From the NCBI GenBank assembly GCA_020630515.1, contig JAHDBG010000001.1, positions 3,197 through 67,196 of the forward strand: a stretch of 64,000 bases of DNA, in the 5' to 3' direction. The notes beneath the pieces were generated by a model that worked only from the letters and a program-made list of their open reading frames with translations, had not been told where the DNA came from and ran no database searches. Within the stretch, counting starts at the first letter, position 1; every line of letters starts with the position of its first letter. The translations under genes were made by a program, and so were the position numbers. This document shows, piece after piece, positions 21,597 to 39,954 of this stretch. This DNA is from Gammaproteobacteria bacterium (GTDB lineage Bacteria; Pseudomonadota; Gammaproteobacteria; Chromatiales; Chromatiaceae).

Positions 21597-22910
21597 TCAG
21601 GCCTCCAGGCGATATTCAGCGGCCCGTGCATGCGCCTCCAGCCCTTCACCACGCGCCAGCACAGAGGCGGTGCGGCCCAGTTGTTGTGCCCCGGCAGGTG
21701 AGGCCATGATCAGGCTGGTTCGTTTCTGGAAGTCATACACGCCGAGCGGCGAGCTGAAGCGGGCGGTGCCGGAAGTCGGCAGGACATGGTTCGGCCCGGC
21801 ACAATAATCGCCCAGTGGTTCGCTGGTATAGCGACCCATGAAGATGGCTCCGGCATGGCGGATCTGTTTCACATAGTTCGTCGGGTCTGCGATCGATAGT
21901 TCCAGGTGTTCCGGTGCAATACGGTTTGCTATCGTCGCGGCTTCGGTCAGATCGCGACATTGAATCAGTGCGCCCCGGCGGCGCAGTGCGGTAGTGACAA
22001 TCGACTGGCGCTGCAGAGTTGGCAATAATCGTGTGATGCTGGCCTGCACCTGCTGAATAAAGTCTGCATCCGGACATACCAGAATCGCCTGGGCCGCTTC
22101 ATCATGTTCGGCCTGCGAGAACAGATCCATCGCGATCCAGTCCGGGTTGGTCTGGCCATCGCAGATCACCAGGATCTCGGAAGGCCCGGCGATCATATCA
22201 ATTCCGACCTGGCCGAACACGGCCCGCTTCGCTGCTGCGACATAACTGTTGCCCGGCCCGACGATCTTATCCACTGCAGGTACCGTCCCGGTACCATACG
22301 CGAGAGCTGCGATGGCCTGGGCACCACCGATCGCAAAGGCCTGGGTGACGCCGCACAAATGAGCGGCAGCCAGTACCAGTGGATTGGTCTCGCCCTGCGG
22401 TGTCGGGACTACCATGATCAGTTCTGCGACGCCTGCTACCTTTGCCGGCAAGGCATTCATCAGTACCGAAGATGGGTAGGCGGCCTTGCCACCCGGCACA
22501 TACAGTCCGACCCGATCCAGTGGCGTGATTTGTTGCCCGATCAGGGTGCCATCCGGTTCTGTATCCTGCCAACTGGTCAGTTTCTGGCGTTCGGCATACG
22601 TCTGTATCCGCGTGGCAGCCTGTTGCAGTGCGGTACGTTGTGTTGTGCTGATCGTCTCCCAGGCCTGGTGCAGATGCTCATCCGACAGGATCAACGCTTG
22701 CGGCGTTACTGGTGTCCAGCCATCGAAACGGGTGGTATAGTCCAGCAGGGCGGTATCGCCCTGCGTCCGCACTGCCCGGAGGATGGTATCGACGGTGCTC
22801 TGCAGTTCGGTATCTGCAACGGCTTCCCAGGCCAGCAACTGATCCAGTTGTTGCTTGAATCCGGGCTGTGTACTATTCAGTAAAGTGATCTGAGACATAG
22901 ACATCGGCAA
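21597..22910 (-). CDS. hisD: Histidinol dehydrogenase
   Basis: The conserved HisD pattern is present ([37 protein letters not shown]). Confidence 0.95.
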
Positions 22911-23019
22911 AAAATATCAGTTTATTATGTATCCGTGGGGGTCTGGCTGCGGCCATTCAGACCGCAGACGCCCTCGGCGAGTAGGCTCGGGTAACACTCT
23001 TTGCGTGCAGTGACCTGAA

Positions 23020-23589
23020 TCAGGATGAATAAAACTTTCCGGCATCCGGGCATAGATGATCAAAACGTTGTAGATATTCCTGCGCCGCTGTTTGCCAGTG
23101 CCATTCCGGAATATTCAGATTAAATGGTTTCAAGGAACTCACACTGGCTATATATTCATCAGACAGACAGGTGAATTTTTTTTGTTCCTGTAGAATCAGA
23201 GACAAATTAGCATTTAATAACCATTGAGGCCAGGGCCATTCTATATTAAAGCGTTGTGCAACCGCTCGTTCAATGCATTCTTTTAACGGCTTAATCTCAG
23301 GAACAACGTTTCTTACGCCAAAAGGAATATCTGAAATATAAACATCGACCCCATGATGCAATAACATAAGTAAGGCTTTTGCATCACTTCCCCAACTTTG
23401 GGTTAACACCCAGTCAGTCAATACACAACAATGAGTTGCAGTACTGTAAAAACAATTCAGATGACCATTAAAACGTACCACCTTAGCTAAGGAGTAAGCA
23501 ATATCATCAATGAATATATCATTTATATTCGGCGAAGCTAGGTCAAATAAAATACCAGAATTCGTTTCTATAAGTGTATTACTGTACAT
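23020..23589 (-). CDS. HD-superfamily phosphohydrolase-like protein with an eroded HD dyad
   Basis: SGILFDL..P...I.IDDIAYSLAKVVRFNGH...FYSTATHC and LLHHGVDVYISDIP follow the small HD-hydrolase pattern (T.SG..FD, RF.GH, FYSVAQHS, LLHDA.EAY.GD), but HD is replaced by HH. I prefer the start at ATG 23589, because the track start at 23637 overlaps the upstream gene. Confidence 0.5.
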   Translation of the reverse strand: MYSNTLIETNSGILFDLASPNINDIFIDDIAYSLAKVVRFNGHLNCFYSTATHCCVLTDWVLTQSWGSDAKALLMLLHHGVDVYISDIPFGVRNVVPEIKPLKECIERAVAQRFNIEWPWPQWLLNANLSLILQEQKKFTCLSDEYIASVSSLKPFNLNIPEWHWQTAAQEYLQRFDHLCPDAGKFYSS

Positions 23590-23593
23590 AAAT

Positions 23594-24259
23594 TTACTCT
23601 GAATAGCCTTGTGAAAAATCCAATAAACCCAGTCCATACTCTGCAGGGCGTATTGCAGGAATTATTTTCTCAAGTTCTATGGCTTGTTGAGGCCATCGGG
23701 TTTTTATATTGCACCATATCTCTTGTGTATCAGAAGTTCGGTGAATATCATCGATAATTACCAGTTTGGGCTTAAATAACATAAAATAGCAACCAAGGCA
23801 CGCTAATGTGTATTTATAAGCGTGTTGCGGATCATCTATATACAGAATGTCCACATTATCCTGAGATAATATAGATGCAATTCTTGAGATAACTTTGGGA
23901 TTTAATGGGTTTCCTGTAATTGGAATGACACTGTTATACTGGCCCAGTTCGTCTAAATTTCTTTGTTCTTCATCAATAGTCACGATTTTTACATTTGATG
24001 AATTATTGTTTTTAACGCAACCACGCTCAAATGCCCGGGTTGCTGAACCATACCAGGTTCCTATCTCAATAATGTTATTAGCCTGGATTGCATTAGCGAG
24101 GCCAGCAAAAAAAGAAAAATATGCCTGATGGCCAAAATTTTTTAATGGCTCAAAATGATCAGGCCCATATAAAATATCGGTCGTATCAATTTTCTTTCCG
24201 ATTGACCAGGCTCGTTGAATCAATCCTGAAGATTTTTCATTTCCCATAACTAAAATCAC
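23594..24259 (-). CDS. Class I SAM-dependent (family-3 O-methyltransferase-like) methyltransferase
   Basis: Motif I is IIEIGTWYGSAT, and a later block reads ILYIDDPQHAYKY...LVIIDDI. This resembles cation-dependent OMT/CmcI-type enzymes. The start is GTG 24259 or ATG 24247. Confidence 0.55.
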   Translation of the reverse strand: MILVMGNEKSSGLIQRAWSIGKKIDTTDILYGPDHFEPLKNFGHQAYFSFFAGLANAIQANNIIEIGTWYGSATRAFERGCVKNNNSSNVKIVTIDEEQRNLDELGQYNSVIPITGNPLNPKVISRIASILSQDNVDILYIDDPQHAYKYTLACLGCYFMLFKPKLVIIDDIHRTSDTQEIWCNIKTRWPQQAIELEKIIPAIRPAEYGLGLLDFSQGYSE

Positions 24260-26281
24260 TCATGTCAGAAATGCGGCTCTTTTTTTATCTACACCAGCAT
24301 TTCTTAAACCAATAATTAAAAATATGGCATTAACTAAAATAGCTGTCATAATGCTGAAGTGAAAAATGAAGGCACCGGACAGGTTGATAATACCTGGAAC
24401 TATAGCAACCATGAAACTATTCTTCAATTGTATTTCTAATTTTTTAGCCAGATTAAATAACTCATGTAAATGAGATAAGTTTCCATCCAGAAAAATAATT
24501 GAAGCTGTATCTGTAGCAACGTGGGCAGCACCTTGCATGGATATTGATACATTTGCTGTTTTTAAGGCAATACCATCATTAATGCCATCACCTATAAAAC
24601 AGACTTTTCTCCCTTTTTCCTGTAATTTTTTAACGATTGATGCCTTATCTTCAGGTAGAACTTCGTAAAAATATTCATCCGCATCAATTTCCTGAGCAAC
24701 CTTATGAGTGGGTAAACGATGGTCGCCGGAAACAACACCAATATGCTCAACACCATAATTGCGTAATTGCTGAATAACAGAGCAGACGTTCTCCTGAAGT
24801 TTTGCCTGAATTTCAATAATACCAATCACTTGCTGTTCAATAGAAACTAATACGAAAGAATTTCCCTGACCCTGAATATCAGCCAGATTATTCTTTAGCT
24901 GCTTGGGTATGTCAATACCCTGAGCTTGTATGAACCGTTCACTACCAACGTTAATACATTGTTGCCTGAGCCGCACACTAACTCCATTGCCTAAATGATA
25001 TTCGGAATGATCAAAAGCAGTTAATGGAATATTTAATGTTCTGGCCTTAGATAAAATAGCTTCGCCAATTGGATGGTTACATTTTTGTTCAGCAATGGCT
25101 GCATATCGTAATATTTCCATTTCCGCATAATCAGCAAGTGGAACAATACGGCATACTTCAGGACAAGGGTCAGTCAGTGTACCTGTTTTATCAAATAACA
25201 CCGTATCTACTCCGGCTAATTCTTCTAACGCTCTACCATCTTTTACCAGAATTTTCTGATTTACGGCATAATTAATATAATTAAGTGTCGTTAACGGTGA
25301 AAATAACCTGACTCTATTACCGACATGGCTTTTCAGAAATATGATGGCCGAGCTTATACCAAATGTTGGTATGACAAATAATGAAGCCAGCAGAGTAGGC
25401 AAAATAGCTGCATCTGACCATTGTTCCCCTTTTAATTGTAAAGTTGATTTAAAATCAACAGAGTGCTCAAGCAGATGGTTAATTTTAGCGACTGTGGTAT
25501 CAGTACCTGATTTTGTAACCTGAAGTAATAGTTTACCACTGGTTAATAAAGTTGATGCATAAACATCATCATGTAGCATTTTTTCGACAGGTTGCGCTTC
25601 TCCGGTTAATATTCTTTCATCAATGCCACCTGAACCTTCAACAATTTTACCATCAACTGGAATGACTTCTCCGGCATTCACAATAATAATATCTTTCTGT
25701 TCCACTGTTTCTGAAGGAATTTCAATCTCAATACCATCACGAAGTACCCAGATATTTCCGGACTGTTCAGTGAAATTTTTAATTAATGTCTGAGAGGAAT
25801 TGTCTTTTGCTTTGGTGATCAGAAAATTAGAGCAGTGCACAAAGAGTATGCCTAAAGCAGCAGCAGTATACTGACTGGTTGCTAAAGTCATTGAATCTGC
25901 AAAAAGAAATAATGCACTTACACCGATTTTTTTATCTTGGCGTAGTGATTTTTCGACACTTTTAATACACGGTAGCGTTATATAAAAAAATAAACCTAAA
26001 TTCAGTAGCCTTAGCTGCGGGAAAAATAATTCTGTACTAGCCGAAAAGGCAATGGATACTAAACTTAATTTAGTATATCTTGCATGTTCCGAGGGTGTTT
26101 CCAGTAAAGGCACTATGGGTGATGAAGCGACCATAGACTTTATAGCCTTCGGAACTTTTATATTCATATGGTCTTCAATATCTTTATAGCTATATTTTAT
26201 TTTCTTTTTTTTTTCTCTTCTTGTTTCCAGCTTACGTATCCCGGCATAAATGGCATACATAAGGCCTGCTTCAATTAACAT
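24260..26281 (-). CDS. P1B-like P-type ATPase lacking a CPx motif and an N-terminal metal-binding domain (copy 1)
   Basis: TGEAQPVEK, DKTGTLT, the N-domain NHP and GDGINDGIALK are all present. There is no GMxCxxC and no C-P-C/H/S triplet in the helix preceding ILVKDG. Confidence 0.85.
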   Translation of the reverse strand: MLIEAGLMYAIYAGIRKLETRREKKKKIKYSYKDIEDHMNIKVPKAIKSMVASSPIVPLLETPSEHARYTKLSLVSIAFSASTELFFPQLRLLNLGLFFYITLPCIKSVEKSLRQDKKIGVSALFLFADSMTLATSQYTAAALGILFVHCSNFLITKAKDNSSQTLIKNFTEQSGNIWVLRDGIEIEIPSETVEQKDIIIVNAGEVIPVDGKIVEGSGGIDERILTGEAQPVEKMLHDDVYASTLLTSGKLLLQVTKSGTDTTVAKINHLLEHSVDFKSTLQLKGEQWSDAAILPTLLASLFVIPTFGISSAIIFLKSHVGNRVRLFSPLTTLNYINYAVNQKILVKDGRALEELAGVDTVLFDKTGTLTDPCPEVCRIVPLADYAEMEILRYAAIAEQKCNHPIGEAILSKARTLNIPLTAFDHSEYHLGNGVSVRLRQQCINVGSERFIQAQGIDIPKQLKNNLADIQGQGNSFVLVSIEQQVIGIIEIQAKLQENVCSVIQQLRNYGVEHIGVVSGDHRLPTHKVAQEIDADEYFYEVLPEDKASIVKKLQEKGRKVCFIGDGINDGIALKTANVSISMQGAAHVATDTASIIFLDGNLSHLHELFNLAKKLEIQLKNSFMVAIVPGIINLSGAFIFHFSIMTAILVNAIFLIIGLRNAGVDKKRAAFLT

Positions 26282-26297
26282 TTACATCTCACTGTTT

Positions 26298-27452
26298 TCA
26301 GTTAGTTTCTGGTTCAGCGGAAACTTGATCCAGATAACGGGATAACCTGGTTAAACCTGTCTCAATATGATGTTTCGGACATGCAAAATTCAAGCGCAGA
26401 AAACCATGATCATGGTCTTGAAAGTCAATACCCGGAGTAGAGCTCAGTGCATAATAACGCGCTAAGTCTAACGAAGCCTGCAGAGTATCACAGCATGATT
26501 TTGTTATATCTATTAACGCAAAAAAACCTGCTTCAGGTTGCAAACGAAGTTTGAATCCCAGATTTTGAGCGGTATAGCTGAAAAAAGACCAGTTATCGCG
26601 TAACATCGCACGGTGTTTGCTGATTAATTCATCCCAATAGTGTAGTAGATGATTTGCCACTATCTGGCTGGGCAGGCTGGTACACATGTTCAGAATGGCT
26701 TTAACATTAGTCATCAACTGCACTTGTGATTCCGGCACGATCAGATAACCGATTCGAAAACCAGCAATTGCCAATGATTTTGAAAGACTGCTGACAACGA
26801 TATGTTGATTTGTAAAATGAATAGCGGAAGGAATGGTTTCATCCAGCAATGGTAAGGATTGATAAACCTCATCGAAGATCACAGGCACACCCATGCTGGT
26901 AATATATTCCAGTTCATCTGAACACAAAAATGTGCCGTGTGGATTGCTGGGGGAGTTGATTATAATAGCCCGTGTTTTATCGGAAATGAGTTGTGGTAAG
27001 CATTCAACATCAATATAGCCTTCATCGCGCATAGGGGCCAGACGATAGCCCGCTTTAAGAATTCTGACCATCACATTGTAAGCCGGATAACGTGAAGCAG
27101 GCAGAATCACTTCTCCTCCATCTTCCAGTAACATCGCCAGAGCAATCGTCATAGCTCCGGACGCCCCATCAGTAATGCAAACCCGATCTGGTGTCAAATC
27201 ATAATCAAACTTTTCCTGATAGTAACGACAAATAGCCTGCCGTAGACTTTCCAGGCCTGCGATATCACCATAACTGATATGCTTACCTAATTCTGTACGG
27301 CTGAGGTGGAAGTCGATATGACTGAAGGGATTAAAAGAGGAGGTACCCTTTCCAAAATTGATAGGGTCAAGCTTACCATGCACTGTGTTGTCAAACATAT
27401 CCATGACTTTATCCATCATCAGAGCTGGATATGCACAATTGTTTTCAGACAC
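26298..27452 (-). CDS. Class I/II PLP-dependent aminotransferase
   Basis: NSPSNPHG is present, and the PLP-lysine block is SSLSKSLAIAGFRIGY. Length is 384 aa. Confidence 0.85.
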   Translation of the reverse strand: MSENNCAYPALMMDKVMDMFDNTVHGKLDPINFGKGTSSFNPFSHIDFHLSRTELGKHISYGDIAGLESLRQAICRYYQEKFDYDLTPDRVCITDGASGAMTIALAMLLEDGGEVILPASRYPAYNVMVRILKAGYRLAPMRDEGYIDVECLPQLISDKTRAIIINSPSNPHGTFLCSDELEYITSMGVPVIFDEVYQSLPLLDETIPSAIHFTNQHIVVSSLSKSLAIAGFRIGYLIVPESQVQLMTNVKAILNMCTSLPSQIVANHLLHYWDELISKHRAMLRDNWSFFSYTAQNLGFKLRLQPEAGFFALIDITKSCCDTLQASLDLARYYALSSTPGIDFQDHDHGFLRLNFACPKHHIETGLTRLSRYLDQVSAEPETN

Positions 27453-27455
27453 TTG

Positions 27456-28439
27456 TTATGTCCTCTGAGAGTGTGCCTGATGTAATCTATCCAGCACTTG
27501 CGATAGTGTTTTATAATATTCGCGTGATATCTTGTTTACTATCTTATCCAGATCATCCGGGTATTTTTCCACCAGTTGTTCACTCCAGACAGGATCAATA
27601 TTTTTTTGTGCTAATAAATAGTATAAACGACGTTGTTTTTCATCATCTTGTTTAAGAGACCAGCGCTCACAAAATGCCAGTGTATCCTGCTTAAGATGCA
27701 AGTCCGCTAAATTATTAGTTATTAAATAATTCTCCAATGGTGTATTGCCGCCTGACAAGCCAAAACCATGTAACGAAACGTCAATCAGATCACAGCCAGA
27801 CGAAAATGCCCGACTCGAATTTTCGATCGCGTTACCCAAGGTGTCGTGTGCATGAAAGCCCAGAGGTTGATCAACTTCCTTTTTTGCTAATGTAATCAGC
27901 GACTCAACCTCATGAGGATACAATGCGCCTCGGGAGTCAGCCAGATATACCCGGTCTATACTTCTTGAGGATACGATTTTTTGCAGCAGATAAGCAATTT
28001 CATCGTGTCGGTAGGAAGAAATACAGATCAGGTTCAAACTAACCTTAATAGTTGCAGACTGTTCATGCAGATAATCGGCGATGATTAATGCTTCCTTCAT
28101 GGCGTCTTCTGTACAGGTCAGACGAATTAAAGAAAGATATTGCAGCTTGCCCGCAACAGCCTCTTTCCAGCCATCTTCCAGTGGATTCAACATGCCTACC
28201 CAATGCATCTTGGGATATGCATAGGTAATGTGCTCCAGAAATTTAATCGGACAACCATTCACCGATGAAGTTGTTCTGGCAGGTGTGCGTAAAAAGCCGA
28301 TCTCTACCTGATGAATGCCTTGCTTACAGATAAAATCAATCATAGCCATGATTTCTTCGGTAGAAAACTGCCATTGGTTCAGGTAACCACCGTCTCGTAA
28401 AGTTACATCAAGAATATTACTCAAAGAAATATTTTTCAT
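27456..28439 (-). CDS. HMGL-like (pyruvate carboxyltransferase/aldolase TIM-barrel) enzyme
   Basis: DVTLRDGGY lies near the N-terminus, and HAHDTLGNAIENS is the second metal-binding motif. At 327 aa it has no IPMS-type regulatory domain. Confidence 0.75.
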   Translation of the reverse strand: MKNISLSNILDVTLRDGGYLNQWQFSTEEIMAMIDFICKQGIHQVEIGFLRTPARTTSSVNGCPIKFLEHITYAYPKMHWVGMLNPLEDGWKEAVAGKLQYLSLIRLTCTEDAMKEALIIADYLHEQSATIKVSLNLICISSYRHDEIAYLLQKIVSSRSIDRVYLADSRGALYPHEVESLITLAKKEVDQPLGFHAHDTLGNAIENSSRAFSSGCDLIDVSLHGFGLSGGNTPLENYLITNNLADLHLKQDTLAFCERWSLKQDDEKQRRLYYLLAQKNIDPVWSEQLVEKYPDDLDKIVNKISREYYKTLSQVLDRLHQAHSQRT

Positions 28440-28483
28440 TTTTTTGTCTGATTTTTTTTCAAATTAGTGAATGATCATGAGGA

Positions 28484-29803
28484 TTATGCAGGTGAAAAAC
28501 GATAATTTAAACGTTGTTTTATATCTGCAAGGATGTTCAATATTTCCTCACGGCTGTTACCCGGAATACTGATCATACAATAGCGATAAGTGTCAATAGA
28601 ACGTTTGGATTCAGAGAGCTTTTTGATGCCAGGTGGAATACGGTTAACAATCTTGATATCCGGATAGGATAAATATATTGCGGACAAATTGTCAGTATCA
28701 GGAGTTTCCAGAATATGCTGATCTTCAAAGGTGCGTAATTCACATGAATAGCAAAGAGAATAGGTAGATGCCTGTCTGGTAGGTGGCTTGTCACCACAAG
28801 CAAGAGCACACATCGTTGTCAGCATATCATCGCCGCTGGCCATGGCATACAGATTTTCGTATTGAACGACTGCTCTCGGGTTGATTTCGATAATGGTTAG
28901 TTTGTCTTTCTCAAAATCAATATAAAATTCAATATCGAATTCAGTATTGTCCAGGCCAGTATGTGCAACAAAACGTTGCACCATGCGCTCAATCTGGTAC
29001 CGCCATCGATCAGGCAAATCTGCCGGGCATTCATGATATTCAAAGCTTTTTGAGTTCGGCAGAAAATATTCAGCTACGATTCCATGCAAACTGATTTCAC
29101 CATTGACGATATAGCCATTAACTGCAAATTGCCGCCCTGCAATGATTTCTTCACACAGATATTGGTTGCAATTTCCAGCACTTTGTAACAGCCTGCTATT
29201 ACCGAATACGGTAGTTAGTGCTTCGATATAGGGTTGATTGAACTGTTGCAGCATCAGGCGTTCATTATTGATTTTTTTATGCAGTTCCTGTGCGGAGTGA
29301 ACGATCGCGCAACCAAAAGAACCTGCTGCCCGAACAGGCTTAGCAAAAACGGGAGTAATAGCAAACTTGCTAGCGGCGTAATCCTCAGCAGATGCAAATG
29401 CTGGCGTATGTTCAGGTACACTTTCCTGCTGCAACATTCTGCAATATAGTTTATTCTGGCAACGTGCAATACTTTCAAGTGGCGGGGCGATTTTGTCTGA
29501 CAGGTGAGCAATAGCAGCAGCGATGGCATTAGGTGTGTCAAAAAAGCCAGTGACCCCGTCAAAAAATCCTTTGTGCTCTTTAATAGCATCTGATATTGCT
29601 TCGATATAGTGTCGTACACCCATTACCTGGATAGCTTCAATGGATTCGTTGATCACTTCGTAATCAGGATGTTCACGAAATTTTTCTTCTAAAAATGTCA
29701 AAGAATTACTTTCGGAAATCATCAATACACGCTTACGGTGAGAGTCTTTTTCAGGTGTATAACGTTGTAGCGTATCCGATATCAGACTATTATGTGAATT
29801 CAT
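28484..29803 (-). CDS. ATP-grasp ligase (L-amino-acid-ligase-like)
   Basis: The 439-aa protein has a pre-ATP-grasp N-domain. Its central blocks are FAKPVRAAGSFGCAIV, LCEEIIAGRQFAVNGYIVNGE and IIEINPRA, which is the ATP-grasp fold pattern. Confidence 0.72.
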   Translation of the reverse strand: MNSHNSLISDTLQRYTPEKDSHRKRVLMISESNSLTFLEEKFREHPDYEVINESIEAIQVMGVRHYIEAISDAIKEHKGFFDGVTGFFDTPNAIAAAIAHLSDKIAPPLESIARCQNKLYCRMLQQESVPEHTPAFASAEDYAASKFAITPVFAKPVRAAGSFGCAIVHSAQELHKKINNERLMLQQFNQPYIEALTTVFGNSRLLQSAGNCNQYLCEEIIAGRQFAVNGYIVNGEISLHGIVAEYFLPNSKSFEYHECPADLPDRWRYQIERMVQRFVAHTGLDNTEFDIEFYIDFEKDKLTIIEINPRAVVQYENLYAMASGDDMLTTMCALACGDKPPTRQASTYSLCYSCELRTFEDQHILETPDTDNLSAIYLSYPDIKIVNRIPPGIKKLSESKRSIDTYRYCMISIPGNSREEILNILADIKQRLNYRFSPA

Positions 29804-29918
29804 TATTTTGTGGGGTGTATGGGGTAGGGTACTGGCGCACGGATAGCATACCAGGTAACGCTTTGTGCAGTGGTACGATCGCCTCTGCGGCTGTTTTCAA
29901 GTAGGTGCCATCGGTGCA

Positions 29919-31667: not shown

Positions 31668-32997
31668 ACTATCATCTTTTTGTCCCGCGCAATTACTGAC
31701 ACAATTGCGCGACCTGCCACGACCGGCGCATTATCTGGTTGCGTACAGCGGTGGAGTGGATTCACATGTTCTGCTACATGCGCTCGCAACCTGCCGGGGT
31801 CAGTATATGATTTCTCTGCAGGCGATCCATGTGCAGCATGGCCTGCATCCTGAGGCAGGGAAGTGGGCAGCCCATTGTCAGGCGGTCTGTCAAGCGCTGG
31901 ACATTCCGTTGCAGATTGTTTCTGTGCAATTGCAGCGACCAGCCGGCGCCAGCCTGGAGGCGGTTGCACGCGAAGCACGCTATGCCGCGTGTCAGCAACA
32001 TGCCTTGCCGGGCACCATGCTGCTGACGGCACACCATGCGGATGATCAGGCTGAAACAGTGCTGCTGCAGTTGTTACGCGGTGCCGGCATCGCTGGTCTG
32101 GCAGCGATGCCGATCTGCCGTACCACACCATCGGGTTGGCATGCCCGACCCTGTCTGCACTGGTCGCGTCAGGCATTGCAGCAGTATGCGCAACAACATG
32201 CTCTGACCTGGATTGAAGACCCGAGCAACCAGAATACCGATTTTGATCGGAATTATATCCGTCAGCAGGTCATGCCGTTATTGCAGGCACGCTGGCCAGC
32301 TGCGAACCGGACTCTGGCACGTAGCGCCAGCCATGTCGCAGCGATACTACCGCTGGTTCAGGCACAGGCCCGGCGGGATCTGGCGGACAGTTGCGACCTG
32401 ACCGGGCATCTGCGGGTGTCGGTATTGCGCGAGTTGCCGGAGGTGCGTTGTCAGCAGGTGTTACGTGCCTGGATCCACCAGACTGACCATCCGGTGCCGA
32501 ATCAGGCGCAATTGTCAGAAATAGTAGACCAGGTTATTTATGCCGCACCTGACAGCCAGCCGCAGATTGCCTGGCAGAATAGTGAGTTACGTCGTTATCG
32601 GGATGTGCTGTGGTTATTGCATCGGCCATTACCGCCACTGCCGGACAAGCCGTTGGTCTGGCCGGTACAGATGCAGACATTGACATTACCCGTCGGATGT
32701 GGAGTGTTGCGCCGTATACCGGCGGAGCAGGGGTTACCGGCTCAATATTGGCAGCAGGGACGGGTATCGGTGCGCTGGCGTCGTCAGGGTATCCGTTGCC
32801 GGCCTGCTGGCCGACAGGGTCACCGCAGCTTTAAAAAGCTGTGCCAGGACTATGGTGTCCCACCCTGGCAACGGTCTTATGTGCCGTTGTTGTATCTGGA
32901 TGATCAGTTGATTGCGGTGGCTGATATCTGTCTGTGCATGGAGCCGATCACGGGTGATACCTGTCATCAGTTACAGTGGTTGCGGGATAATGGTTAA
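31648..32997 (+). CDS. tilS: tRNA(Ile)-lysidine synthase
   Basis: The PP-loop [12 protein letters not shown] is present. The accA-tilS order is conserved, and length is 449 aa. Confidence 0.85.
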
Positions 32998-33686
32998 GAA
33001 CGACAGAATTCATAAAATTCGGACCGGTAATCTGTATTCTGAGCAAGATAATCGCCCGAAAACTGCGTTGTCTTCATCGCAGCACCGGCATGTTTCACGC
33101 CTCGGCAACTGACACAATGGTGTTCGGCCGCGACCATCACCGCGACCCCGATATTGCCTGTGCAGATCTGATCAACCATATGATGTATGGCTAAGGTCAT
33201 CTGTTCCTGAATCGTACCGCGCCGCGAGCATTGTTCAACAATGCGATTTAACTTGGACAGCCCGACCACTTGGCCGTCCTGACGTGGGATATACGCAATA
33301 TGGACTCGTCCCAGAATCGTCTGATGATGGTGCGAACACATTGAAGTCAGCGGGATATTACCCTCAAACACCTGTCCGTTGTAGCCGTCACATGGAAAAC
33401 TGGTGATGTTATTTAATGGCTCATACCGGCCTTGCCATAAATCGTGGACGTAGGCCTTCGCGACTCGTCTTGGAGTATCTGCTGAGTTCGGATCCTGTTG
33501 CCAGTTACAGCCTAGTGCGTTCAGAAAATGGCCGAAATGTTGTGCTGCTTCGGCAATAATCGCCTCTTTTTCGGCTGTTGTGAGACGGGCCTGATTGCCA
33601 TGTTGCGCTTGTTTAGCAGCTAACTGGGTTGAAATGCCATTCGCATATCCGACTGGAGCCAGTTCCAGGCTATGTTGTTTTTTCAT
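32994..33686 (-). CDS. folE: GTP cyclohydrolase I (FolE type IA) variant
   Basis: TPRRVAKAY, TSMCSHHHQTILGRVHIAYIP, VGLSKLNRIV, QEQMT and HHCVSCRG align with E. coli FolE ([21 protein letters not shown] ... HYCVKARG). ATG 33686 has an AAGGA RBS. The track start at 33770 overlaps the upstream ATPase. Confidence 0.82.
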   Translation of the reverse strand: MKKQHSLELAPVGYANGISTQLAAKQAQHGNQARLTTAEKEAIIAEAAQHFGHFLNALGCNWQQDPNSADTPRRVAKAYVHDLWQGRYEPLNNITSFPCDGYNGQVFEGNIPLTSMCSHHHQTILGRVHIAYIPRQDGQVVGLSKLNRIVEQCSRRGTIQEQMTLAIHHMVDQICTGNIGVAVMVAAEHHCVSCRGVKHAGAAMKTTQFSGDYLAQNTDYRSEFYEFCRS

Positions 33687-33702
33687 AACATCCTTGTCTG
33701 TA

Positions 33703-35853
33703 TTATGTGTTGATATCCGACTGATGAGTGACTGAGGTACGGTTGTTTGCATAAATGCAGTGGCGCGCATCGCTCCGCACTGAATCGTTCTGGTGATGTC
33801 CGGTTTCAGGTATTTCCCGATGCTTGATCAAAGACCATAAGACATTGCCTAATCCAATGAAGGTATTCACGTACCAGATAGCCATGCTGACTGCAAGACC
33901 TGTATGTAAAAGATAAATGCCCGGGATGATGAGAAAGCCCGGTACAAAGCTGATTACCAGGTTTTTTTGCATGGTCTGTTCAAACTGATCACCTAACCGG
34001 AAAAACTCCGGGACTTTGGCCAATGTGCCATCCATCAGCACCACTTGCGCGGTATCCGTGGCAGCACTGGATGCGCCGGATAAGGAAAGCGAAACATGAG
34101 CTTTTTTCAGTGCAATCGCGTCATTAATGCCATCCCCGACGAAACAGACAAAGCGCCCCTGTGCCTGCAGCTGTTCGACATAGTCAGCCTTATGTTCAGG
34201 TAATACACCAGAAAAATAATGTTGAATACCAAGTGATTGTGCCAGGCTGCGTGTAGGCCCGGCATGGTCACCAGAGATAATATATAGCCGTATGTTACGC
34301 TGTTGTAAAAATTGTACTATTTCGGCTGCTTCTGGCCGGATGGTTGGTTGCAGCGTAAGGATACCAGCCAGCTCCTGATTGACCGCAACATAGATCAGGC
34401 TGTGTCCATGTTCATCTGACTGTGCCTGCAATGCTTGAAGTGTGTCAGGTAATACAACGCCTTGTTGTTGTAAGAACCGTGCGCTACCGACCTGGATACA
34501 GTCATCCTGACAGTGTACCCGGATGCCGTAACCGAGGTTATAGTTTGCAGTATCCGGGATGGGTAATTCCAGTTGTTCTGCTGCTGCTCTGGCCAGGATG
34601 GCCTTTGCCACCGGATGTGGCTGACGGTACTCTGCGACGGCAGCGTAACGTAATACATCGGTTTCGGTATAGTGACCAAATGGCCGGATAGCACTGACTG
34701 TGGGTTGTTCCAGCGTGAGGGTGCCGGTCTTATCAAACACGACGGTATCAACATCACGTAATAATTCAAAGACCCGCCCGTCTTTGATCAGAATGTTGCG
34801 GCGAGACAGGATTTGCAGATAACTCATCACACTTAACGGGCCGAGCGTTGCCATCAGCCCGCCAAGATTTGCCCATAACATCGCCAGTGCTGATTCGGAT
34901 CCCAGAACAGGCAGGGTCAGTACACTCAGCCCAATGGTAACCGGTAGATACTGGTTCGCGATCTGGCAGCCACGCGTGGTCAGGTTGTCTTTATAACTTT
35001 GGGTTTCACTGAGTACTGTGCCAATCTTTGCAGCGAGTGTGGCTTCACCAGTGGTTTGTACCTGAATGTGTAACTGACCGGATAATAATAAAGTCGCAGC
35101 GAAGACCTCATGACCAGGCGTTTTTTCCACCGGCTGGCTCTCGCCGGTCAGGATATGCTGATCCACCTGGCCATGGCCTGCTGTGATGATACCATCAATC
35201 GGGATAATTTCACCTGGATGTACAATAACCTGGTCGCCTGCCTGCAGATCCTGAAACGGAATCTGGATTTCGGCGTCATCCACCATGATCCAGATCTGTT
35301 CCGGGCGATCACAAAACACATTGATCAGCTGATAATGTGAGGCTTCTTCCATTCGATTGACGATGCGTGCCAGAAAACCCGTGATGATCGCTGAAACAGC
35401 AGCAAAGATGAATCTGCCAGACGCCAGCATCCAGCAGATCATGATCAGTGAGACTATTTGGAAGGTGAAATAATGACCGCGTTGAAAATCCTTGCGGATC
35501 AGCTTCAGTATATCTTTCGTCAGATAAAGTACGGCAGCTGTACTGATCAGATTCATGACCGGGAAATAAGCACCGGATATAGCCAGGGCTAATGCGCACA
35601 GTCCAAACTTCTGCTGTCGTTGCGCGCGCTCTTTTTCTGCCTGAAGTTGCTGTTGCACTGCCGGACTGATGGCACCGTGTAACTGGTTCTGCCCGGTAGC
35701 CTGAAGCGCTTCCCGGATATCGCGCCATAGTTGCCGCAGCGGTCTGTGCTGCGTGGTGGGTAAGACACGATTCTGTTTTTCCGGAACAGGCCGACTTCGC
35801 CAGAGACGATAGCCCAGAGCTCCAGCACTTAATGTTGCCAGCTCAATCCACAT
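33703..35853 (-). CDS. P1B-like P-type ATPase lacking a CPx motif and an N-terminal metal-binding domain (copy 2)
   Basis: TGESQPVEK, DKTGTLT, the N-domain PHP and GDGINDAIALK are present. There is no cysteine motif in the helix before ILIKDG. The architecture matches the 24260-26281 copy. Confidence 0.85.
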   Translation of the reverse strand: MWIELATLSAGALGYRLWRSRPVPEKQNRVLPTTQHRPLRQLWRDIREALQATGQNQLHGAISPAVQQQLQAEKERAQRQQKFGLCALALAISGAYFPVMNLISTAAVLYLTKDILKLIRKDFQRGHYFTFQIVSLIMICWMLASGRFIFAAVSAIITGFLARIVNRMEEASHYQLINVFCDRPEQIWIMVDDAEIQIPFQDLQAGDQVIVHPGEIIPIDGIITAGHGQVDQHILTGESQPVEKTPGHEVFAATLLLSGQLHIQVQTTGEATLAAKIGTVLSETQSYKDNLTTRGCQIANQYLPVTIGLSVLTLPVLGSESALAMLWANLGGLMATLGPLSVMSYLQILSRRNILIKDGRVFELLRDVDTVVFDKTGTLTLEQPTVSAIRPFGHYTETDVLRYAAVAEYRQPHPVAKAILARAAAEQLELPIPDTANYNLGYGIRVHCQDDCIQVGSARFLQQQGVVLPDTLQALQAQSDEHGHSLIYVAVNQELAGILTLQPTIRPEAAEIVQFLQQRNIRLYIISGDHAGPTRSLAQSLGIQHYFSGVLPEHKADYVEQLQAQGRFVCFVGDGINDAIALKKAHVSLSLSGASSAATDTAQVVLMDGTLAKVPEFFRLGDQFEQTMQKNLVISFVPGFLIIPGIYLLHTGLAVSMAIWYVNTFIGLGNVLWSLIKHREIPETGHHQNDSVRSDARHCIYANNRTSVTHQSDINT

Positions 35854-36027: not shown

Positions 36028-36801
36028 ATGATGAGTTTGTCAGGTTCTGTAAACAAAAAATCTTTGGCATGGGATACCATGCGTGGTACATTCGATTCTT
36101 GTGGAGGAGAAAGCTTTCATCCGACTGATGAAGAAATTAAATTATTTTTAGATTCTGTATCTCCGCAAGACAACATAGCAGTGATTGGTGCTATCACAAA
36201 AAAACTGGTAGATTCACTGATAGCAAAAAATATCAATCCGGTGGTTCTGGATTTTTCTCATGATATGTGCCAGGACTTAAAAAAAGTATCTGGGTTACAA
36301 ACAATTTATTTATATGATGTGATGCAGGAACCGCCGGGGGATCTTGTCGGAAAATTTGATTTTATTCTGACACATCGGCTGCTCAATCAGTTCATGCGCG
36401 AAGAAGTAATTCGTGTCTTATACAATATGGTACAACTTTTAAAACCTCAAGGCCGTATCCGAACATCTGTTAAATTGGGTTTTTATGCGTCAGATGTAGA
36501 TCTTATTGAGCAGGGGAAGCAGAAGAATATCGTACAGAAATTTTATGACCCACACACAAAAACGATAGACTTCTCAGCCGCAGGGCCATTGCTGGATAAA
36601 TTAGTTCAGGTACAATCTGATATACCGGAAGATACCTTGATAAGGTGGTATAAGCTACGCGGGGAAATTAGCCGGTTTGAGTGTCAGGATATGATTGATA
36701 TCGCCAGCACATGTCAGGAGATTATGCTGGAATCTGTCATGCAACCTGAAAAAGCGAGTGTTGAAAACACTCATTTTTATACCTTCACTAAAATTATCTG
36801 A
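36028..36801 (+). CDS. Methyltransferase-fold protein with an eroded SAM motif I
   Basis: The sequence is low GC. The order IAVIGAITKK ... VVLDFSHDMC ... FDFILTHRLLNQF ... LLKPQGRI follows class I MTase motifs I, II and post-III, but the GxGxG loop is missing. The start has no clear RBS. Confidence 0.45.
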   Translation: MMSLSGSVNKKSLAWDTMRGTFDSCGGESFHPTDEEIKLFLDSVSPQDNIAVIGAITKKLVDSLIAKNINPVVLDFSHDMCQDLKKVSGLQTIYLYDVMQEPPGDLVGKFDFILTHRLLNQFMREEVIRVLYNMVQLLKPQGRIRTSVKLGFYASDVDLIEQGKQKNIVQKFYDPHTKTIDFSAAGPLLDKLVQVQSDIPEDTLIRWYKLRGEISRFECQDMIDIASTCQEIMLESVMQPEKASVENTHFYTFTKII

Positions 36802-36806
36802 AGATT

Positions 36807-37820
36807 ATGCAGGATTTGATCGGAACCAGTATTCAATATCAGCACAAATCACTATCTGTGTTAGACCAGCGTTGGTTACCGAAAAAAACCTGCTGGCGAC
36901 CCTGTAACACGATTGATGATATGGTGTATATGATCAGGACATTACAGATACGTGGTGCACCCCTGATTGGCATCGGTGCCTGCCTGATTCTGGCTCATCT
37001 GGCAGAACAGGGTATGCCTGAGACAGCACTGTATGCTGGTACAGAACAATTATCAGCAAGCCGCCCGACAGCCGTGAATTTAGGTCATTGTATGCAACAG
37101 GTTCAGGCTATTTTACAATATGCCGGGCCTGCGGGGGTTGTTGAATATACCGAGAACTTATTTGCAGAAGATGTCAGACTATGCAAAAAAATTGCACAGC
37201 ATGGTGCCGCATTGATTCCTGATAAGGCCAGTATCCTGACCCACTGTAATACCGGCAGCCTGGCGACTGCCGGAACAGGTACCGCTATGGGTGTGATCAG
37301 GGAGGCTAAGGCACAGGGTAAAGATGTTCATCTTTGGATCAGTGAAACACGCCCACTGTTACAGGGTGCCCGCCTGACAGCCTGGGAAGCTGCAGGCGCA
37401 GGTATACCGCATACCCTGATCTGTGACAGTACAGCAGCTATGTTGATGGCTCAGGGCAGAACAGATCAGATCTGGGTAGGTTGTGACCGGGTTGCTGCAA
37501 ACGGTGATACGGCAAATAAGATAGGAACCTATGCCTTAGCAGTGAGTGCCGCATATCATAATGTCCCCTTCTATGTGGCCATTCCGCATACCAGTTCAGA
37601 CAGTACCTGTCCGGATGGCAAACATATTCAGATTGAAGAACGGGATGCTGCAGAAGTGCAGGGCGTCAGCGGTCATGCCGGGACGGTAACGTGGGCGGCG
37701 CCACAGACACCAGTGTATAATCCGGCATTTGATATTACCCCTGCCGAACTGATAACAGGCTGGGTTTCAGATTCCGGGGTATATACGCAGCAACAGATTA
37801 CAGAACAGGGTGGTATCTGA
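36807..37820 (+). CDS. mtnA: S-methyl-5-thioribose-1-phosphate isomerase
   Basis: It has the eIF-2B/MtnA family pattern (LDQRWLP, IRGAPLIG, HCNTGSLATAG.GTA.GVI, ETRP.LQGARLTAWE, GCDRVAANGDTANKIGTY). Confidence 0.9.
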   Translation: MQDLIGTSIQYQHKSLSVLDQRWLPKKTCWRPCNTIDDMVYMIRTLQIRGAPLIGIGACLILAHLAEQGMPETALYAGTEQLSASRPTAVNLGHCMQQVQAILQYAGPAGVVEYTENLFAEDVRLCKKIAQHGAALIPDKASILTHCNTGSLATAGTGTAMGVIREAKAQGKDVHLWISETRPLLQGARLTAWEAAGAGIPHTLICDSTAAMLMAQGRTDQIWVGCDRVAANGDTANKIGTYALAVSAAYHNVPFYVAIPHTSSDSTCPDGKHIQIEERDAAEVQGVSGHAGTVTWAAPQTPVYNPAFDITPAELITGWVSDSGVYTQQQITEQGGI

Positions 37821-37821
37821 T

Positions 37822-38451
37822 ATGCAGGGCATAACAGATCAGAGTACAAACCTGGTACAAACACTGATCCGGACCGGTGACTGGATGCATCGCCAAGGTT
37901 GGTGTCCTGCCAGCAGCGGTAATCTGTCCGCACGCGCAGATCAGGACCATATCATCATAACCGTATCCGGTTGTGCCCTAGGTTCCCTGAATGACACAGA
38001 TTTAGTGAGGATTGATACACTGGGTGATCCATCTGACACACGACGTCAACCCTCTGCTGAAACCTTATTGCATGTTCAGCTATATCAACTGGAGCGCCAT
38101 ATCGGTACGATACTACATACACACTCCGTCGCAGCAACATTATTATCCAGAATGACAGTCGGCGATCAATTATCAATAACCGGTTATGAAATACAAAAAG
38201 CACTCAGTCACCTGAACAGCCACCTGTCAGAGGTGACATTAGCTATATTTGATAACTCTCAGGATATGCCGTCACTGGCTAAAAAAATTTCGCAATACCA
38301 TCATACAAGACCCATCCGGTGGGGTTTTCTGTTACGTAGTCATGGGTTATATGCGTTCGGAAAAAACCCGGCAGAAGCCCGGAGGCACCTTGAATGTCTG
38401 GAGTTTCTGATGGCTTGCGAACTACAAAACCTGATGATACATCCGGGTTAA
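37822..38451 (+). CDS. mtnB: Methylthioribulose-1-phosphate dehydratase (class II aldolase fold)
   Basis: GWCPASSGNLSAR, PSAETLLH and ILHTHS...GYEIQK are MtnB-like. The ATG at 37822 follows the mtnA stop. The track start at 37810 is a GTG. Confidence 0.85.
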   Translation: MQGITDQSTNLVQTLIRTGDWMHRQGWCPASSGNLSARADQDHIIITVSGCALGSLNDTDLVRIDTLGDPSDTRRQPSAETLLHVQLYQLERHIGTILHTHSVAATLLSRMTVGDQLSITGYEIQKALSHLNSHLSEVTLAIFDNSQDMPSLAKKISQYHHTRPIRWGFLLRSHGLYAFGKNPAEARRHLECLEFLMACELQNLMIHPG

Positions 38452-38469
38452 CTACAGGAGAAGGCAGAA

Positions 38470-39180
38470 ATGTCTGTTCAGGCCATACTGATGGATATTG
38501 AAGGTACTACCACCAGTATCAACTTTGTTAAAAAAGTATTGTTTCCTTATGCCTATACCCATATTCCGGACTATATCCATTATTATGCAGAGCATCCGTT
38601 AGTCAGTCAGGTGATACAACAAGTGCGCAAAGAAATCCACAATTCTACAGCGGATTCAGGTGATATCATCAATGTTTTACGCGACTGGATTGATCAGGAC
38701 AGGAAGGTCACTGCACTGAAGGATCTACAGGGTATGATATGGCAGAATGGTTATGAAAAAGGTGACTTTACCGGGCACCTGTATGCTGACGTGCCGCAAC
38801 ATTTGCGTTGCTGGAAACAACACGGTATCAGGCTGTATATCTTTTCATCCGGCTCAGTTGCAGCGCAGAAATTATTGTTCAGATTTAGTGATTATGGTGA
38901 TTTGTCTGATGATATATCAGACTATTTCGATACCAACACAGGCCATAAACGTGAACCTGAATCATACAATCGTATCATTGGTTCTGTTCAGCTGCCAGCG
39001 GATGATGTACTGTTTTTATCAGACACACCGGAAGAATGTGATGCAGCCCGGAAGGCTGGATTACAAACGATGTTGCTGCTGAGAAATCAGGTACACAGTG
39101 CGACAGCCGGATATCATCATCCGATAGCTTGCCAGTTCGATGAGATTGAGATCGTGGTCCAGTCGGGTTGTCAGGGGTAA
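38470..39180 (+). CDS. mtnC: Enolase-phosphatase E1 (HAD family)
   Basis: ILMDIEGTTTSINFVK is the HAD motif I in MtnC form, and the WKQHGIRLYIFSSGS block is present. An AGGAGAAGG RBS sits upstream. Confidence 0.85.
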   Translation: MSVQAILMDIEGTTTSINFVKKVLFPYAYTHIPDYIHYYAEHPLVSQVIQQVRKEIHNSTADSGDIINVLRDWIDQDRKVTALKDLQGMIWQNGYEKGDFTGHLYADVPQHLRCWKQHGIRLYIFSSGSVAAQKLLFRFSDYGDLSDDISDYFDTNTGHKREPESYNRIIGSVQLPADDVLFLSDTPEECDAARKAGLQTMLLLRNQVHSATAGYHHPIACQFDEIEIVVQSGCQG

Positions 39181-39198
39181 ATCAGCAGGTGCTTGTCG

Positions 39199-39954
39199 TT
39201 AGTTGCAATGGTCATCCTGGCGACAGAATGCTGCGATAATCTGTAACATCGTACGCAGGCCGGCATCCCGATAAGTGGCTATCTCCTGTAGATCAATCAT
39301 GTCACCATCTGTTCCGGCAGCCCGGTTCACCACCAGTGCCAGACTGGCATACGCCAGACCCAGCTCGCGCGCCAGTGCGGCTTCCGGCATCCCGGTCATG
39401 CCAACCATATCGCACCCATCTCGTTGCAGGCGGCGTATTTCTGCTGCTGTTTCCAGCCTAGGTCCCTGAGTTACACCGTATACCCCGTGTGGCACACAGG
39501 CGATGTCGCCGGACTGTGCCGCCTGCAGCAAGGCCTGGCGTAACGGGGTGCTGTAGGGTAAGCTGAAATCAATATGCCCGAAGGTGTTGCCCAGGCTGGT
39601 CGCGAATGTGTGTTCGCGACTATAGGTGTAGTCAATGACCTGATCCGGAATACTAATCACTCCTGGCCCTAGTTCAGGATGGATGCCGCCGACTGTTGCC
39701 AGTCCGATGATCTGTTGTACCCCTGCTGCTCGCAGTGCCCACAGGTTTGCCCGATAGTTGATACGATGCGGCGGTATCTGATGTTGCAGGCCATGGCGCT
39801 GTAACACAATCACCGGACGGTCTGCCAGTCGGGCAGAATACAAAGGGGCTGATGGTTCGCCATATGGCGTGGTCTGAATTGCCAGGTAATCTGGTTCAGA
39901 AGTAACCAATGGCGTGAGATCGCAGCTGGCAATCAGGCCGGGTGTGTGTGGCAT
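39199..39954 (-). CDS. mtnP: S-methyl-5'-thioadenosine (or thioinosine) phosphorylase
   Basis: It has the PNP/MTAP family pattern (VLQRHG..H.IPPHRINYRANLWALR..GV, GPRLETAAEIRRL...GCDMVGMTGMPEA). Confidence 0.85.
   Translation of the reverse strand: MPHTPGLIASCDLTPLVTSEPDYLAIQTTPYGEPSAPLYSARLADRPVIVLQRHGLQHQIPPHRINYRANLWALRAAGVQQIIGLATVGGIHPELGPGVISIPDQVIDYTYSREHTFATSLGNTFGHIDFSLPYSTPLRQALLQAAQSGDIACVPHGVYGVTQGPRLETAAEIRRLQRDGCDMVGMTGMPEAALARELGLAYASLALVVNRAAGTDGDMIDLQEIATYRDAGLRTMLQIIAAFCRQDDHCN

Follow-up and report, generated by a model that had tools for sequence, protein, structure and literature searches.

The 64,000-nucleotide (nt) stretch analysed here (the window; assembly GCA_020630515.1, contig JAHDBG010000001.1) carries at positions 23020–29803 a 6.8-kb block of six open reading frames (ORFs), all on the minus strand, which is foreign, horizontally acquired DNA organized as a compact same-strand gene block. 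We favour, at a probability of roughly one half, the reading that this block is a horizontally acquired operon for the synthesis of an amino-acid-derived small molecule independently of a nonribosomal peptide synthetase (NRPS), with an embedded pump as transport partner. Genes g1–g6 encode an ATP-grasp carboxylate–amine ligase-like protein, an HMGL-fold aldolase, a class I aminotransferase, a CPx-less P-type ATPase, a putative methyltransferase and an HD-superfamily protein. Catalytic motifs are intact in all six (for g5 a putative, glycine-rich one and for g6 H..HH..D..D), and the operon, whose genes have counterparts grouped together in a few other, unrelated bacteria, is a type A variant of a rare modular family of loci built around the ATP-grasp enzyme, the HMGL aldolase and a class I aminotransferase. 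All of the enzymes fall within known superfamilies, but in subgroups without a characterized member, and the unusual feature of this small-molecule gene cluster is the embedded, recurrent CPx-less ATPase. No matching characterized pathway was found in the literature searched, NCBIfam, PADLOC or Rfam, in agreement with an earlier note on this DNA, which knew of none with this enzyme set.

Layout, composition and genomic setting

The coordinates and tight packing of the ORFs given in the earlier note were reproduced exactly, with intergenic gaps from g1 to g6 of 44, 3, 16, 0 and 4 nt. For g6 an alternative start lies at 23637; the shorter start at 23589 is backed by homologues and by the database entry P0029. 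The only gap on the upstream side longer than 44 nt is the 115-nt intergenic region at 29804–29918 (minus strand), which presumably holds the promoter or leader. Scans of the block edges for consensus promoters and terminators gave no enrichment over shuffled sequence, and neither the block (the upstream 115 nt included) nor seven related loci contained an Rfam match, a riboswitch or a leader RNA.

The G+C content (GC) is 0.36–0.43 for the genes of the block and 0.54–0.60 for the flanking genes. Counted per kilobase, it is 0.36–0.44 within the block against 0.54–0.60 on either side, which bears out the low GC noticed earlier and makes the block the lowest-GC stretch of the window. The GC at third codon positions (GC3) of the six genes is 0.26–0.39, compared with 0.56–0.65 for dnaG, hisC, hisD, DUF218, accA and tilS. 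The downstream edge falls in the 109 nt that separate the stop codon of g6 from the start of hisD (22911–23019, minus strand), where GC passes from 0.40 to 0.56 and no terminator-like site passed the scan. At 0.40, the GC of the island resembles that of the related clusters in loci L002, L003, L006 and L013 (0.36–0.43).

The block adjoins hisD (21597–22910; TIGR00069, 532 bits). In related gammaproteobacteria the gene immediately preceding hisD is hisG (Pfam HisG), of which the whole window contains no detectable homologue, so that both the adjacency and the absence reported in the earlier note stand. The hisC stop is overlapped by the dnaG start at 20524, and the order hisD–hisC–dnaG is unusual. 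No GTDB representative has a hisD more than 72% identical to that of the host (the best matches being Sedimenticola and Chromatiales-type genomes), which marks the host as a gammaproteobacterium from a poorly sampled group. The annotated genes from 18.8 to 40.8 kb include no integrase or transposase, as had been observed before; no tRNA gene is adjacent (tRNAs lie only at 2.7 and 43.2 kb), no direct repeats were found flanking the block and no DNA match to it was found in the plasmid collection. The insertion site cannot be reconstructed, since synteny shared with relatives ends at hisD–hisC. A defence system was rejected as an identity for the block, all six proteins giving zero matches in PADLOC.

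Related loci and the modular cluster family

The core trio of ATP-grasp enzyme, HMGL aldolase and an aminotransferase is present in every related locus with enough flanking sequence. Co-localization in other genomes had been set beforehand as a check on the operon, and it was passed: all six families occur together in two divergent metagenome loci, L005 and L013, which with the window make up type A. Identities to the window in these two loci are 46–50% for the ATP-grasp enzyme, 39–40% for the aldolase, 37–38% for the aminotransferase, 31–38% for the ATPase, 44% for the methyltransferase and 59–61% for g6. Both loci also encode a protein of 264–266 residues, and directly upstream of the ATP-grasp gene they carry a cysteine desulfurase-family protein (TIGR01977, 383 bits) and a TusE/DsrC sulfur carrier (L005 8283–9960 and L013 3147–4785; the carrier is also seen at 1–252 of the short contig L014). 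These sulfur genes are absent from the window.

In type B (L006 and L002/L012) the order is (ATPase, 333-residue protein)–aminotransferase′–ATP-grasp–aldolase, followed downstream by an SbnB-family dehydrogenase (371 bits, over the cutoff), an agmatinase-like protein and an ectoine-synthase-like protein; in L002/L012 an NRPS comes next. The type B aminotransferase′ of L006 scores 345.6 bits against the β-methylarginine aminotransferase model TIGR04544, for which the cutoff is 350. Type C (L003/L004) reads sulfotransferase–aminotransferase′–ATP-grasp–aldolase–DapC-like aminotransferase. None of the related loci contains sugar-nucleotide, glycosyltransferase, defence or mobile-element genes. What stays constant in the cluster family is thus the core of ATP-grasp enzyme, aldolase and an aminotransferase, to which interchangeable modules of tailoring genes are added. 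The window ATP-grasp protein is closest to those of types B and C (58–67% identity) and lies beside the aldolase as in those types, and orthologues of g3, g5 and g6 occur in type A only; the operon of the window looks like a mosaic of types.

The six proteins

The earlier note had named a family for each of the six genes. The assignments of g1–g4 to the ATP-grasp, HMGL aldolase, aminotransferase and CPx-less P-type ATPase families were all borne out by profile searches, and those of g5 and g6 also held, with the qualifications given below.

The first gene of the operon, g1 (28484–29803, minus strand), encodes 439 residues and matches Pfam ATP-grasp_4 (PF13535) with 55 bits. Sequence similarity to solved structures is marginal (12–16% identity to L-amino-acid ligases; phmmer E = 0.009). 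An AlphaFold (AF2) model built from six family members has a predicted local distance difference test (pLDDT) score of 79.6 and a predicted template-modelling score (pTM) of 0.83. Foldseek ranks the L-amino-acid ligase BL00235 first among the structures similar to it (3vot; E = 1.8e-18, TM 0.69/0.76), with biotin carboxylases, YwfE/BacD and RizA next. The motif residues 'FAKP', 'SFG' and 'IE.NP', whose roles were assigned by eye, are invariant in the six-member alignment A1, and the hallmarks of the ATP-grasp superfamily are present: the fold, the ATP-binding Lys, the Gly-rich loop and the E-x-N Mg ligands. The L-amino-acid ligases BL00235, YwfE/BacD and RizA thus resemble g1 in fold, size, domain order and ATP/Mg motif residues; they differ from it in sequence, and biotin carboxylases are nearly as close to g1 by fold. 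On this modelling, g1 is predicted to be a carboxylate–amine ligase with a fold closest to that of the L-amino-acid ligases. Weak NCBIfam matches are to 'carbamoyl phosphate synthase-like' ATP-grasp models. A pyruvate carboxylase-like, biotin-type carboxylase formed by g1 and g2 was rejected: there is no biotin carrier, g1 belongs to ATP-grasp_4 and g2 is closest to aldolases.

The g1 orthogroup is very rare. A search of 5.8e9 protein clusters returned only five relatives of at least 48% identity, an exhaustive profile search of 1.84 billion representatives placed the orthogroup in one 50%-identity cluster with the next match at half the score, a pattern scan found no relative in GTDB representative genomes and a metagenome scan added only a near-duplicate of L002. 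One member of the broader family is fused to an S15 peptidase. Distant paralogues (27–30% identity) lie in copper/metal-resistance neighbourhoods of two plasmids, beside cueR, an HMA protein and a P-type ATPase in an island of a Paraburkholderia fungorum plasmid (L101) and beside an RND pump, VKOR and a copper-binding protein in a Sphingobium yanoikuyae plasmid (L102); a further distant relative adjoins an iron-dependent repressor and feoAB.

The second gene, g2 (27456–28439, minus strand; 327 residues), encodes a class II (metal-dependent) HMGL-fold aldolase/synthase of the 3dxi subgroup and scores 87.7 bits against Pfam HMGL-like (PF00682). Its family profile matches the 'putative aldolase' of PDB entry 3dxi with 134 bits, DmpG (1nvm) with 79 bits and citramalate synthase with 68 bits, which sets the family apart from DmpG and from the citramalate, homocitrate and isopropylmalate synthases; NCBIfam scores are far under the cutoffs (82 versus 229). 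The motifs DVTLRDGGY.N.W.F and GFHAH are invariant in the family, and the RDGGY.NW.F signature is shared with 3dxi, which itself has no assigned function. DmpG and BphI, both 4-hydroxy-2-oxovalerate aldolases, are the best-scoring characterized relatives after 3dxi. They have in common with g2 the TIM-barrel HMGL fold and the Asp/His/His metal site, of which D16, H196 and H198 are invariant in the g2 family and aligned to the metal-site motifs of DmpG. They differ in the catalytic His (His21 of DmpG), replaced in the g2 family by the invariant Tyr19 of RDGGY, and in the partner dehydrogenase DmpF, no counterpart of which was found in the operon with Pfam or NCBIfam. A 3dxi/g2-like aldolase with 30% identity occurs in a different small cluster on a Legionella adelaidensis plasmid (L103 7986–11296), together with two hypothetical proteins, an isocitrate/isopropylmalate-type dehydrogenase, an RraA-family protein and DUF6282; an RraA-like gene also lies beside the ATPase in L005.

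The third gene, g3 (26298–27452, minus strand; 384 residues), encodes a class I pyridoxal phosphate (PLP)-dependent aminotransferase (Pfam Aminotran_1_2, PF00155, 127 bits). The best matches of its family profile are the Asp/aromatic aminotransferases 1gd9 and 1dju (164 bits). All hallmarks of the class are present, namely the PLP Lys, the Asn/Asp/Tyr contacts and the carboxylate Arg, and K225 (SxSKS), R353, N170, D194 and Y197 are invariant in alignment A6. By these features g3 is an ordinary class I aminotransferase. A GntC/capreomycidine-type arginine cyclodehydratase was rejected: the top NCBIfam match, NF041364, reaches only 211 bits against a cutoff of 415, and GntC (8fft) scores 103 bits compared with 164 for the ordinary aminotransferases. 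Orthologues with 37–38% identity lie beside the ATP-grasp gene in L005, L013 and L014.

The fourth gene, g4 (24260–26281, minus strand), encodes a CPx-less P1B-like P-type ATPase of 673 residues, the sole membrane protein of the operon. It scores 373 bits against TIGR01525 (cutoff 346) and 227 bits against CopA (3j08), with which its layout is collinear. Like the P1B heavy-metal ATPases CopA and ZntA it keeps DKTGT, TGE, the P1B-specific HP and GDGIND. It differs from them in transmembrane helix 4 (TM4), where the CPC of CopA is aligned to K-S-H of g4 ('KSHVGN') and no Cys is present, and in the absence of both the CxxC N-terminal domain and the TM5/TM6 metal-ligand signatures: there is no CxxC anywhere in the protein and no Pfam match to an HMA domain. 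The N-terminal metal-binding domain is optional in some P1B subgroups.

The earlier note had left this ATPase unexplained; comparison shows it to be a recurrent partner of the cluster. Its nearest relatives number more than 120 proteins (38–47% identity) from Parabeggiatoa, Verrucomicrobia, Sulfidibacter, Terracidiphilus and others; none of the 60 closest relatives listed has a CPx motif, and the TM4 motif of the clade is P..GP....V..(N/S)SH.G.RIR..APL.TL.H, with (N/S)SH.G.RIR in place of CPx. Conservation of TM5 and TM6 within the clade is poor, and these helices carry no known metal-ligand signatures. CPx-less ATPases accompany the cluster in four independent loci (the window, L005, L006 and L013), Cys being absent from TM4 of the other three pumps as well, and g4 is neither a one-off nor a decayed gene. 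Since the four cluster-associated pumps are only 31–38% identical to one another, their association with the cluster is either ancient or repeated. The relatives of g4 are numerous and their contexts varied and mostly stand-alone, so g4 belongs to a widespread, uncharacterized P1B-derived clade that was probably recruited into the cluster family. The literature searched, including a 2023 review that lists undescribed prokaryotic diversity, contained no characterized CPx-less P1B pump, and nothing matching was found on pumps in metallophore clusters.

Further CPx-less or g4-like ATPases, with their neighbouring genes, were seen in and outside the window. A second CPx-less P1B-like ATPase of 716 residues (33703–35853, minus strand) lies 4 kb from the block; it is 34% identical to g4 over its full length, and its TM4 reads 'LWANLGGLMATLGP'. 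It has a 68-nt coding overlap with a divergent FolE-like GTP cyclohydrolase I gene (32994–33770, minus strand; 138 bits, cutoff 162), and both genes are of intermediate composition (GC 0.49–0.50, GC3 0.48–0.51), under the host level. Divergent from the second ATPase runs a methionine-salvage cluster (36028–39954) of lowered GC (0.39–0.50), comprising a 257-residue methyltransferase-like gene, mtnA, mtnB and mtnC, with a methylthioinosine/methylthioadenosine phosphorylase gene on the opposite strand. An MtnA-like (IF-2B family) gene also follows a g4-clade ATPase in L017 (10222–11265). The g4-clade pumps could be linked to the metabolism of S-adenosylmethionine (SAM) by-products, or these two neighbourhoods could be coincidence. 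In L018/L019 a close g4 relative (46% identity) lies a few kilobases (within about 6 kb) downstream of three genes, which encode a guanidinoacetate N-methyltransferase-like protein, a class III aminotransferase of large size and a QueC-like protein.

The fifth gene, g5 (23594–24259, minus strand; 221 residues), encodes a putative SAM-dependent methyltransferase resembling CmcI and the family-3 O-methyltransferases. The O-methyltransferase family proposed earlier was reproduced, yet the match is weak: g5 scores 26.7 bits against Pfam RMNT_CmcI (PF04989), just over the cutoff of 23.2, and 25.3 bits against Methyltransf_24 (PF13578), below its cutoff, and a profile matches family-3 O-methyltransferases in the PDB only weakly (E 0.01–0.1). 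Three homologues show no variation in the glycine-rich motif 'E.GTW.GSAT' or in 'DILY.DDP.H', and orthologues with 44% identity are present in L005 and L013.

The last gene, g6 (23020–23589, minus strand), encodes an Atu1052-like HD-superfamily protein of 189 residues with no Pfam or NCBIfam match. A profile matches PDB entry 2gz4 (Atu1052) with E = 8e-9, and the alignment places 'THCC...LLHHGVDVYISDIP' of g6 opposite 'QHCL...LLHDAPEYVIGDM' of Atu1052. The H...H(D/H)...D/E...D spacing of the YfbR/Atu1052-type HD phosphohydrolases is aligned with g6, which keeps H..HH..D..D; their defining HD dyad is HH in g6 and in all three known family members, so the HD-phosphohydrolase signature is absent. 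Only these three members were returned by the 5.8e9-cluster search, all three in such clusters. Of the 'degenerate HD hydrolase' of the earlier note, then, the superfamily call held, and the motif proved to be a conserved HD-to-HH variant, not a decayed one.

Proposed pathway, alternatives and significance

Amino-acid chemistry is what the fold of g1, the S15 peptidase fusion, the NRPS of L002/L012, the arginine-type aminotransferase′ and the agmatinase-like and SbnB-like genes of the related loci together point to. In the pathway that we propose from family chemistry, the metal-dependent aldolase g2 would add a C–C bond on a 2-oxo acid (aldol or Claisen-type), giving a substituted, probably 4-hydroxylated 2-oxo acid, which g3 would convert to an α-amino acid; alternatively, g3 may supply the 2-oxo acid from an amino acid. 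Methylation by g5 would follow, and the HD-like g6 may remove a phosphate or carry out another metal-dependent hydrolysis of an intermediate. The ATP-grasp enzyme g1 would then activate a carboxylate as the acyl phosphate and couple it to an amine. In view of their sulfur relay, the fuller type A loci may have an ATP-grasp enzyme that couples to sulfur, which, where TusE/DsrC is present, may serve as the nucleophile in place of the amine; the window operon, which has no sulfur genes, may use host homologues or make a sulfur-free product. As transport partner, g4 would either export the product, which would then be cationic or metal-binding, or move a cation whose handling is tied to it. The order of reactions, the substrates, the product and the substrate of the pump are all predictions of this scheme. 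The sequence of aldol reaction, transamination, methylation and ligation suggested in the earlier note, and its dipeptide product, are likewise conjectural, and that note did not bring in the sulfur chemistry to which L005, L013 and L014 point.

Several characterized routes share parts of this logic, the rhizocticin type being the nearest and the β-methylarginine route also close. In the rhizocticin route an aldolase forms a 4-hydroxy-2-oxo acid; its transamination gives a non-proteinogenic amino acid, which ATP-grasp ligases build into a peptide. Rhizocticin/plumbemycin-type phosphonate pathways follow the same sequence of HMGL aldolase, transamination and ATP-grasp peptide formation as is proposed here. 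RhiG is an HMGL-like aldolase, and ATP-grasp ligases occur in phosphonate clusters (PMC8942020). These pathways lack the P-type ATPase, the CmcI-like methyltransferase and the HD-like protein of the operon, and g2 belongs to the 3dxi subgroup and is likened to RhiG by description. A rhizocticin-like phosphonate cluster was rejected because the six proteins include no phosphoenolpyruvate (PEP) mutase or phosphonopyruvate decarboxylase, so that the product is not a phosphonate; neither enzyme was called in L002–L006 or L013. The β-methylarginine pathway, with the methyltransferase MrsA and the bifunctional aminotransferase MrsB, shows the same pairing of aminotransferase and methyltransferase. 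It has no counterpart of the aldolase, the ATP-grasp enzyme or the pump, g5 is CmcI/family-3-like, g3 is only about 25% identical to the L006 aminotransferase′ and TIGR04544 lies outside the 25 best NCBIfam matches of g3; an MrsB-type aminotransferase, a defining feature of that route, is absent from the window. By analogy, the near-match of the sister-locus aminotransferase′ to TIGR04544 may offer a precedent for converting an amino acid to its 2-oxo acid, modifying it and transaminating it back. Two further links were rejected: the dimethylsulfoniopropionate (DMSP) pathway of DsyGD has no ATP-grasp enzyme, and the gaps between the genes leave no room for the small carrier ORF of a LysW/amino-group-carrier pathway.

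A number of points weigh against the biosynthetic operon with its pump. The enzymatic steps are all extrapolated from superfamily membership; g2 falls in an uncharacterized subgroup and lacks the catalytic His of DmpG, the methyltransferase assignment of g5 is marginal and the fold of g6 lacks a usable model (AF2 pLDDT 49). Because the window is missing the 264–266-residue protein, the cysteine desulfurase and TusE/DsrC, its product may differ from that of the fuller type A loci or be incomplete. The role of the pump in the pathway is argued from repeated adjacency only, the ATPases of the four loci share no more than the 31–38% identity given above and the closest relatives of g4 (42–47%) stand alone in unrelated contexts. 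P-type ATPases are not known to export natural products.

The serious rival, if an unlikely one, is that the operon serves metal acquisition or detoxification, not antibiosis or signalling, the enzymes making a metallophore or a thio- or amino-carboxylate chelator and g4 pumping a hard, non-thiophilic cation or a metal–ligand complex. The SbnB family is known from siderophore precursor synthesis, and its presence in type B, over the cutoff, fits this explanation, as do the descent of g4 from heavy-metal P1B ATPases with retention of the HP motif and the compatibility of the cysteine desulfurase and TusE/DsrC of the fuller type A loci with a sulfur-containing ligand. Distant ATP-grasp relatives (27–30%) in the Paraburkholderia and Sphingobium plasmid metal islands, and another beside the iron-dependent repressor and feoAB, point the same way; the plasmid neighbours are, however, distant paralogues and a small sample. 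The pump itself tells against a metal role: g4 has no cysteine ligand and no N-terminal metal-binding domain, and with TM5 and TM6 poorly conserved in its clade no metal site can be named in it. Nor is there a TonB receptor, a binding-protein importer or a metal-responsive regulator in or beside the operon, and the upstream 115 nt contain no obvious Fur- or Zur-like box as judged by eye (no motif search was run).

It is distinctly unlikely, in our view, that the genes of the five enzymes are a cassette for making a building block, such as a non-proteinogenic amino acid destined for an NRPS or another acceptor elsewhere, with the ATPase as an unrelated passenger of the island. Such a cassette would account for the NRPS next to the trio in L002/L012, for the absence of an ATPase within 10 kb in L002/L012 and L003 and for the stand-alone contexts of the nearest g4 relatives, and an Sfp-type phosphopantetheinyl transferase-like ORF in the window, recognized by eye only, hints at carrier-protein pathways in the genome. 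Yet g4 is embedded in mid-operon with gaps of 16 and 0 nt, and CPx-less ATPases recur in four independent loci whose ATP-grasp enzymes are only 46–58% identical; given that a genome has a few such genes, this recurrence is, by estimate and not computation, not readily due to chance. The Sfp-type ORF lies at 53335–54261 (minus strand) between ccmF-like and murJ-like genes, and strong swings of AT-skew at 52–56 kb coincide with these two membrane-protein genes.

A catabolic or salvage operon, in which g3 deaminates an unusual amino acid, g2 cleaves a 4-hydroxy-2-oxo acid and the pump and remaining proteins serve uptake or detoxification, is poorly supported and improbable. DmpG and BphI, to which g2 is compared above, are catabolic retro-aldolases; against this, the partner dehydrogenase DmpF is absent, ATP-grasp ligases and SAM methyltransferases are typical of anabolism and the related loci are joined to NRPS, sulfotransferase and ectoine-synthase-like genes. 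The known P1B-type pumps, moreover, export and do not import (PMC10654040). Amino-acid or sugar-acid decoration of lipopolysaccharide or capsule is very improbable and likewise poorly supported. It could draw on the weak 'carbamoyl phosphate synthase-like' matches of g1, on the rhamnosyl O-methyltransferases included in the CmcI family and on a nearby DUF218/ElyC-like host gene, but that gene lies outside the island and has host composition, and neither the operon nor the related loci contain a glycosyltransferase, nucleotidyltransferase, sugar dehydratase, flippase or polymerase. The defence and phosphonate explanations are rejected on the results given above.

A bolder and quite unlikely form of the transport argument takes g4 to be a primary active transporter of the organic product of the operon, either a cationic amino-acid-derived molecule or its metal complex, and not a metal-ion pump. 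It would then be the first bacterial P1B-derived pump for a small-molecule metabolite, analogous to the eukaryotic P5B polyamine pumps. P-type ATPases would gain a new substrate class in the 'SH.G.RIR' TM4 clade, and the metabolite made by the operon would be of a class not known before, which in the fuller relatives might contain sulfur.

If the favoured reading of a biosynthetic operon with a transport partner is correct, the block encodes within 6.8 kb, compact enough to clone, a pathway to an unknown metabolite, made by enzymes of subgroups without a characterized member: an HMGL aldolase of the 3dxi type, an ATP-grasp enzyme from a very rare orthogroup and an HD protein of the HH variant. 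Should the product prove to be a commonplace modified amino acid or a chelator, the loci would still form a useful new gene-cluster family, and no field would be changed. The operon would also give a genetic handle on a widespread P-type ATPase clade that lost the metal-binding motif of its parent family, and would suggest what the physiological ligand of the pump might be, for whose substrate there would otherwise be no basis even for a guess. For the cluster family as a whole, it would illustrate modular cassette evolution, the same trio having been combined with sulfur-relay, arginine-type or NRPS modules across lineages.

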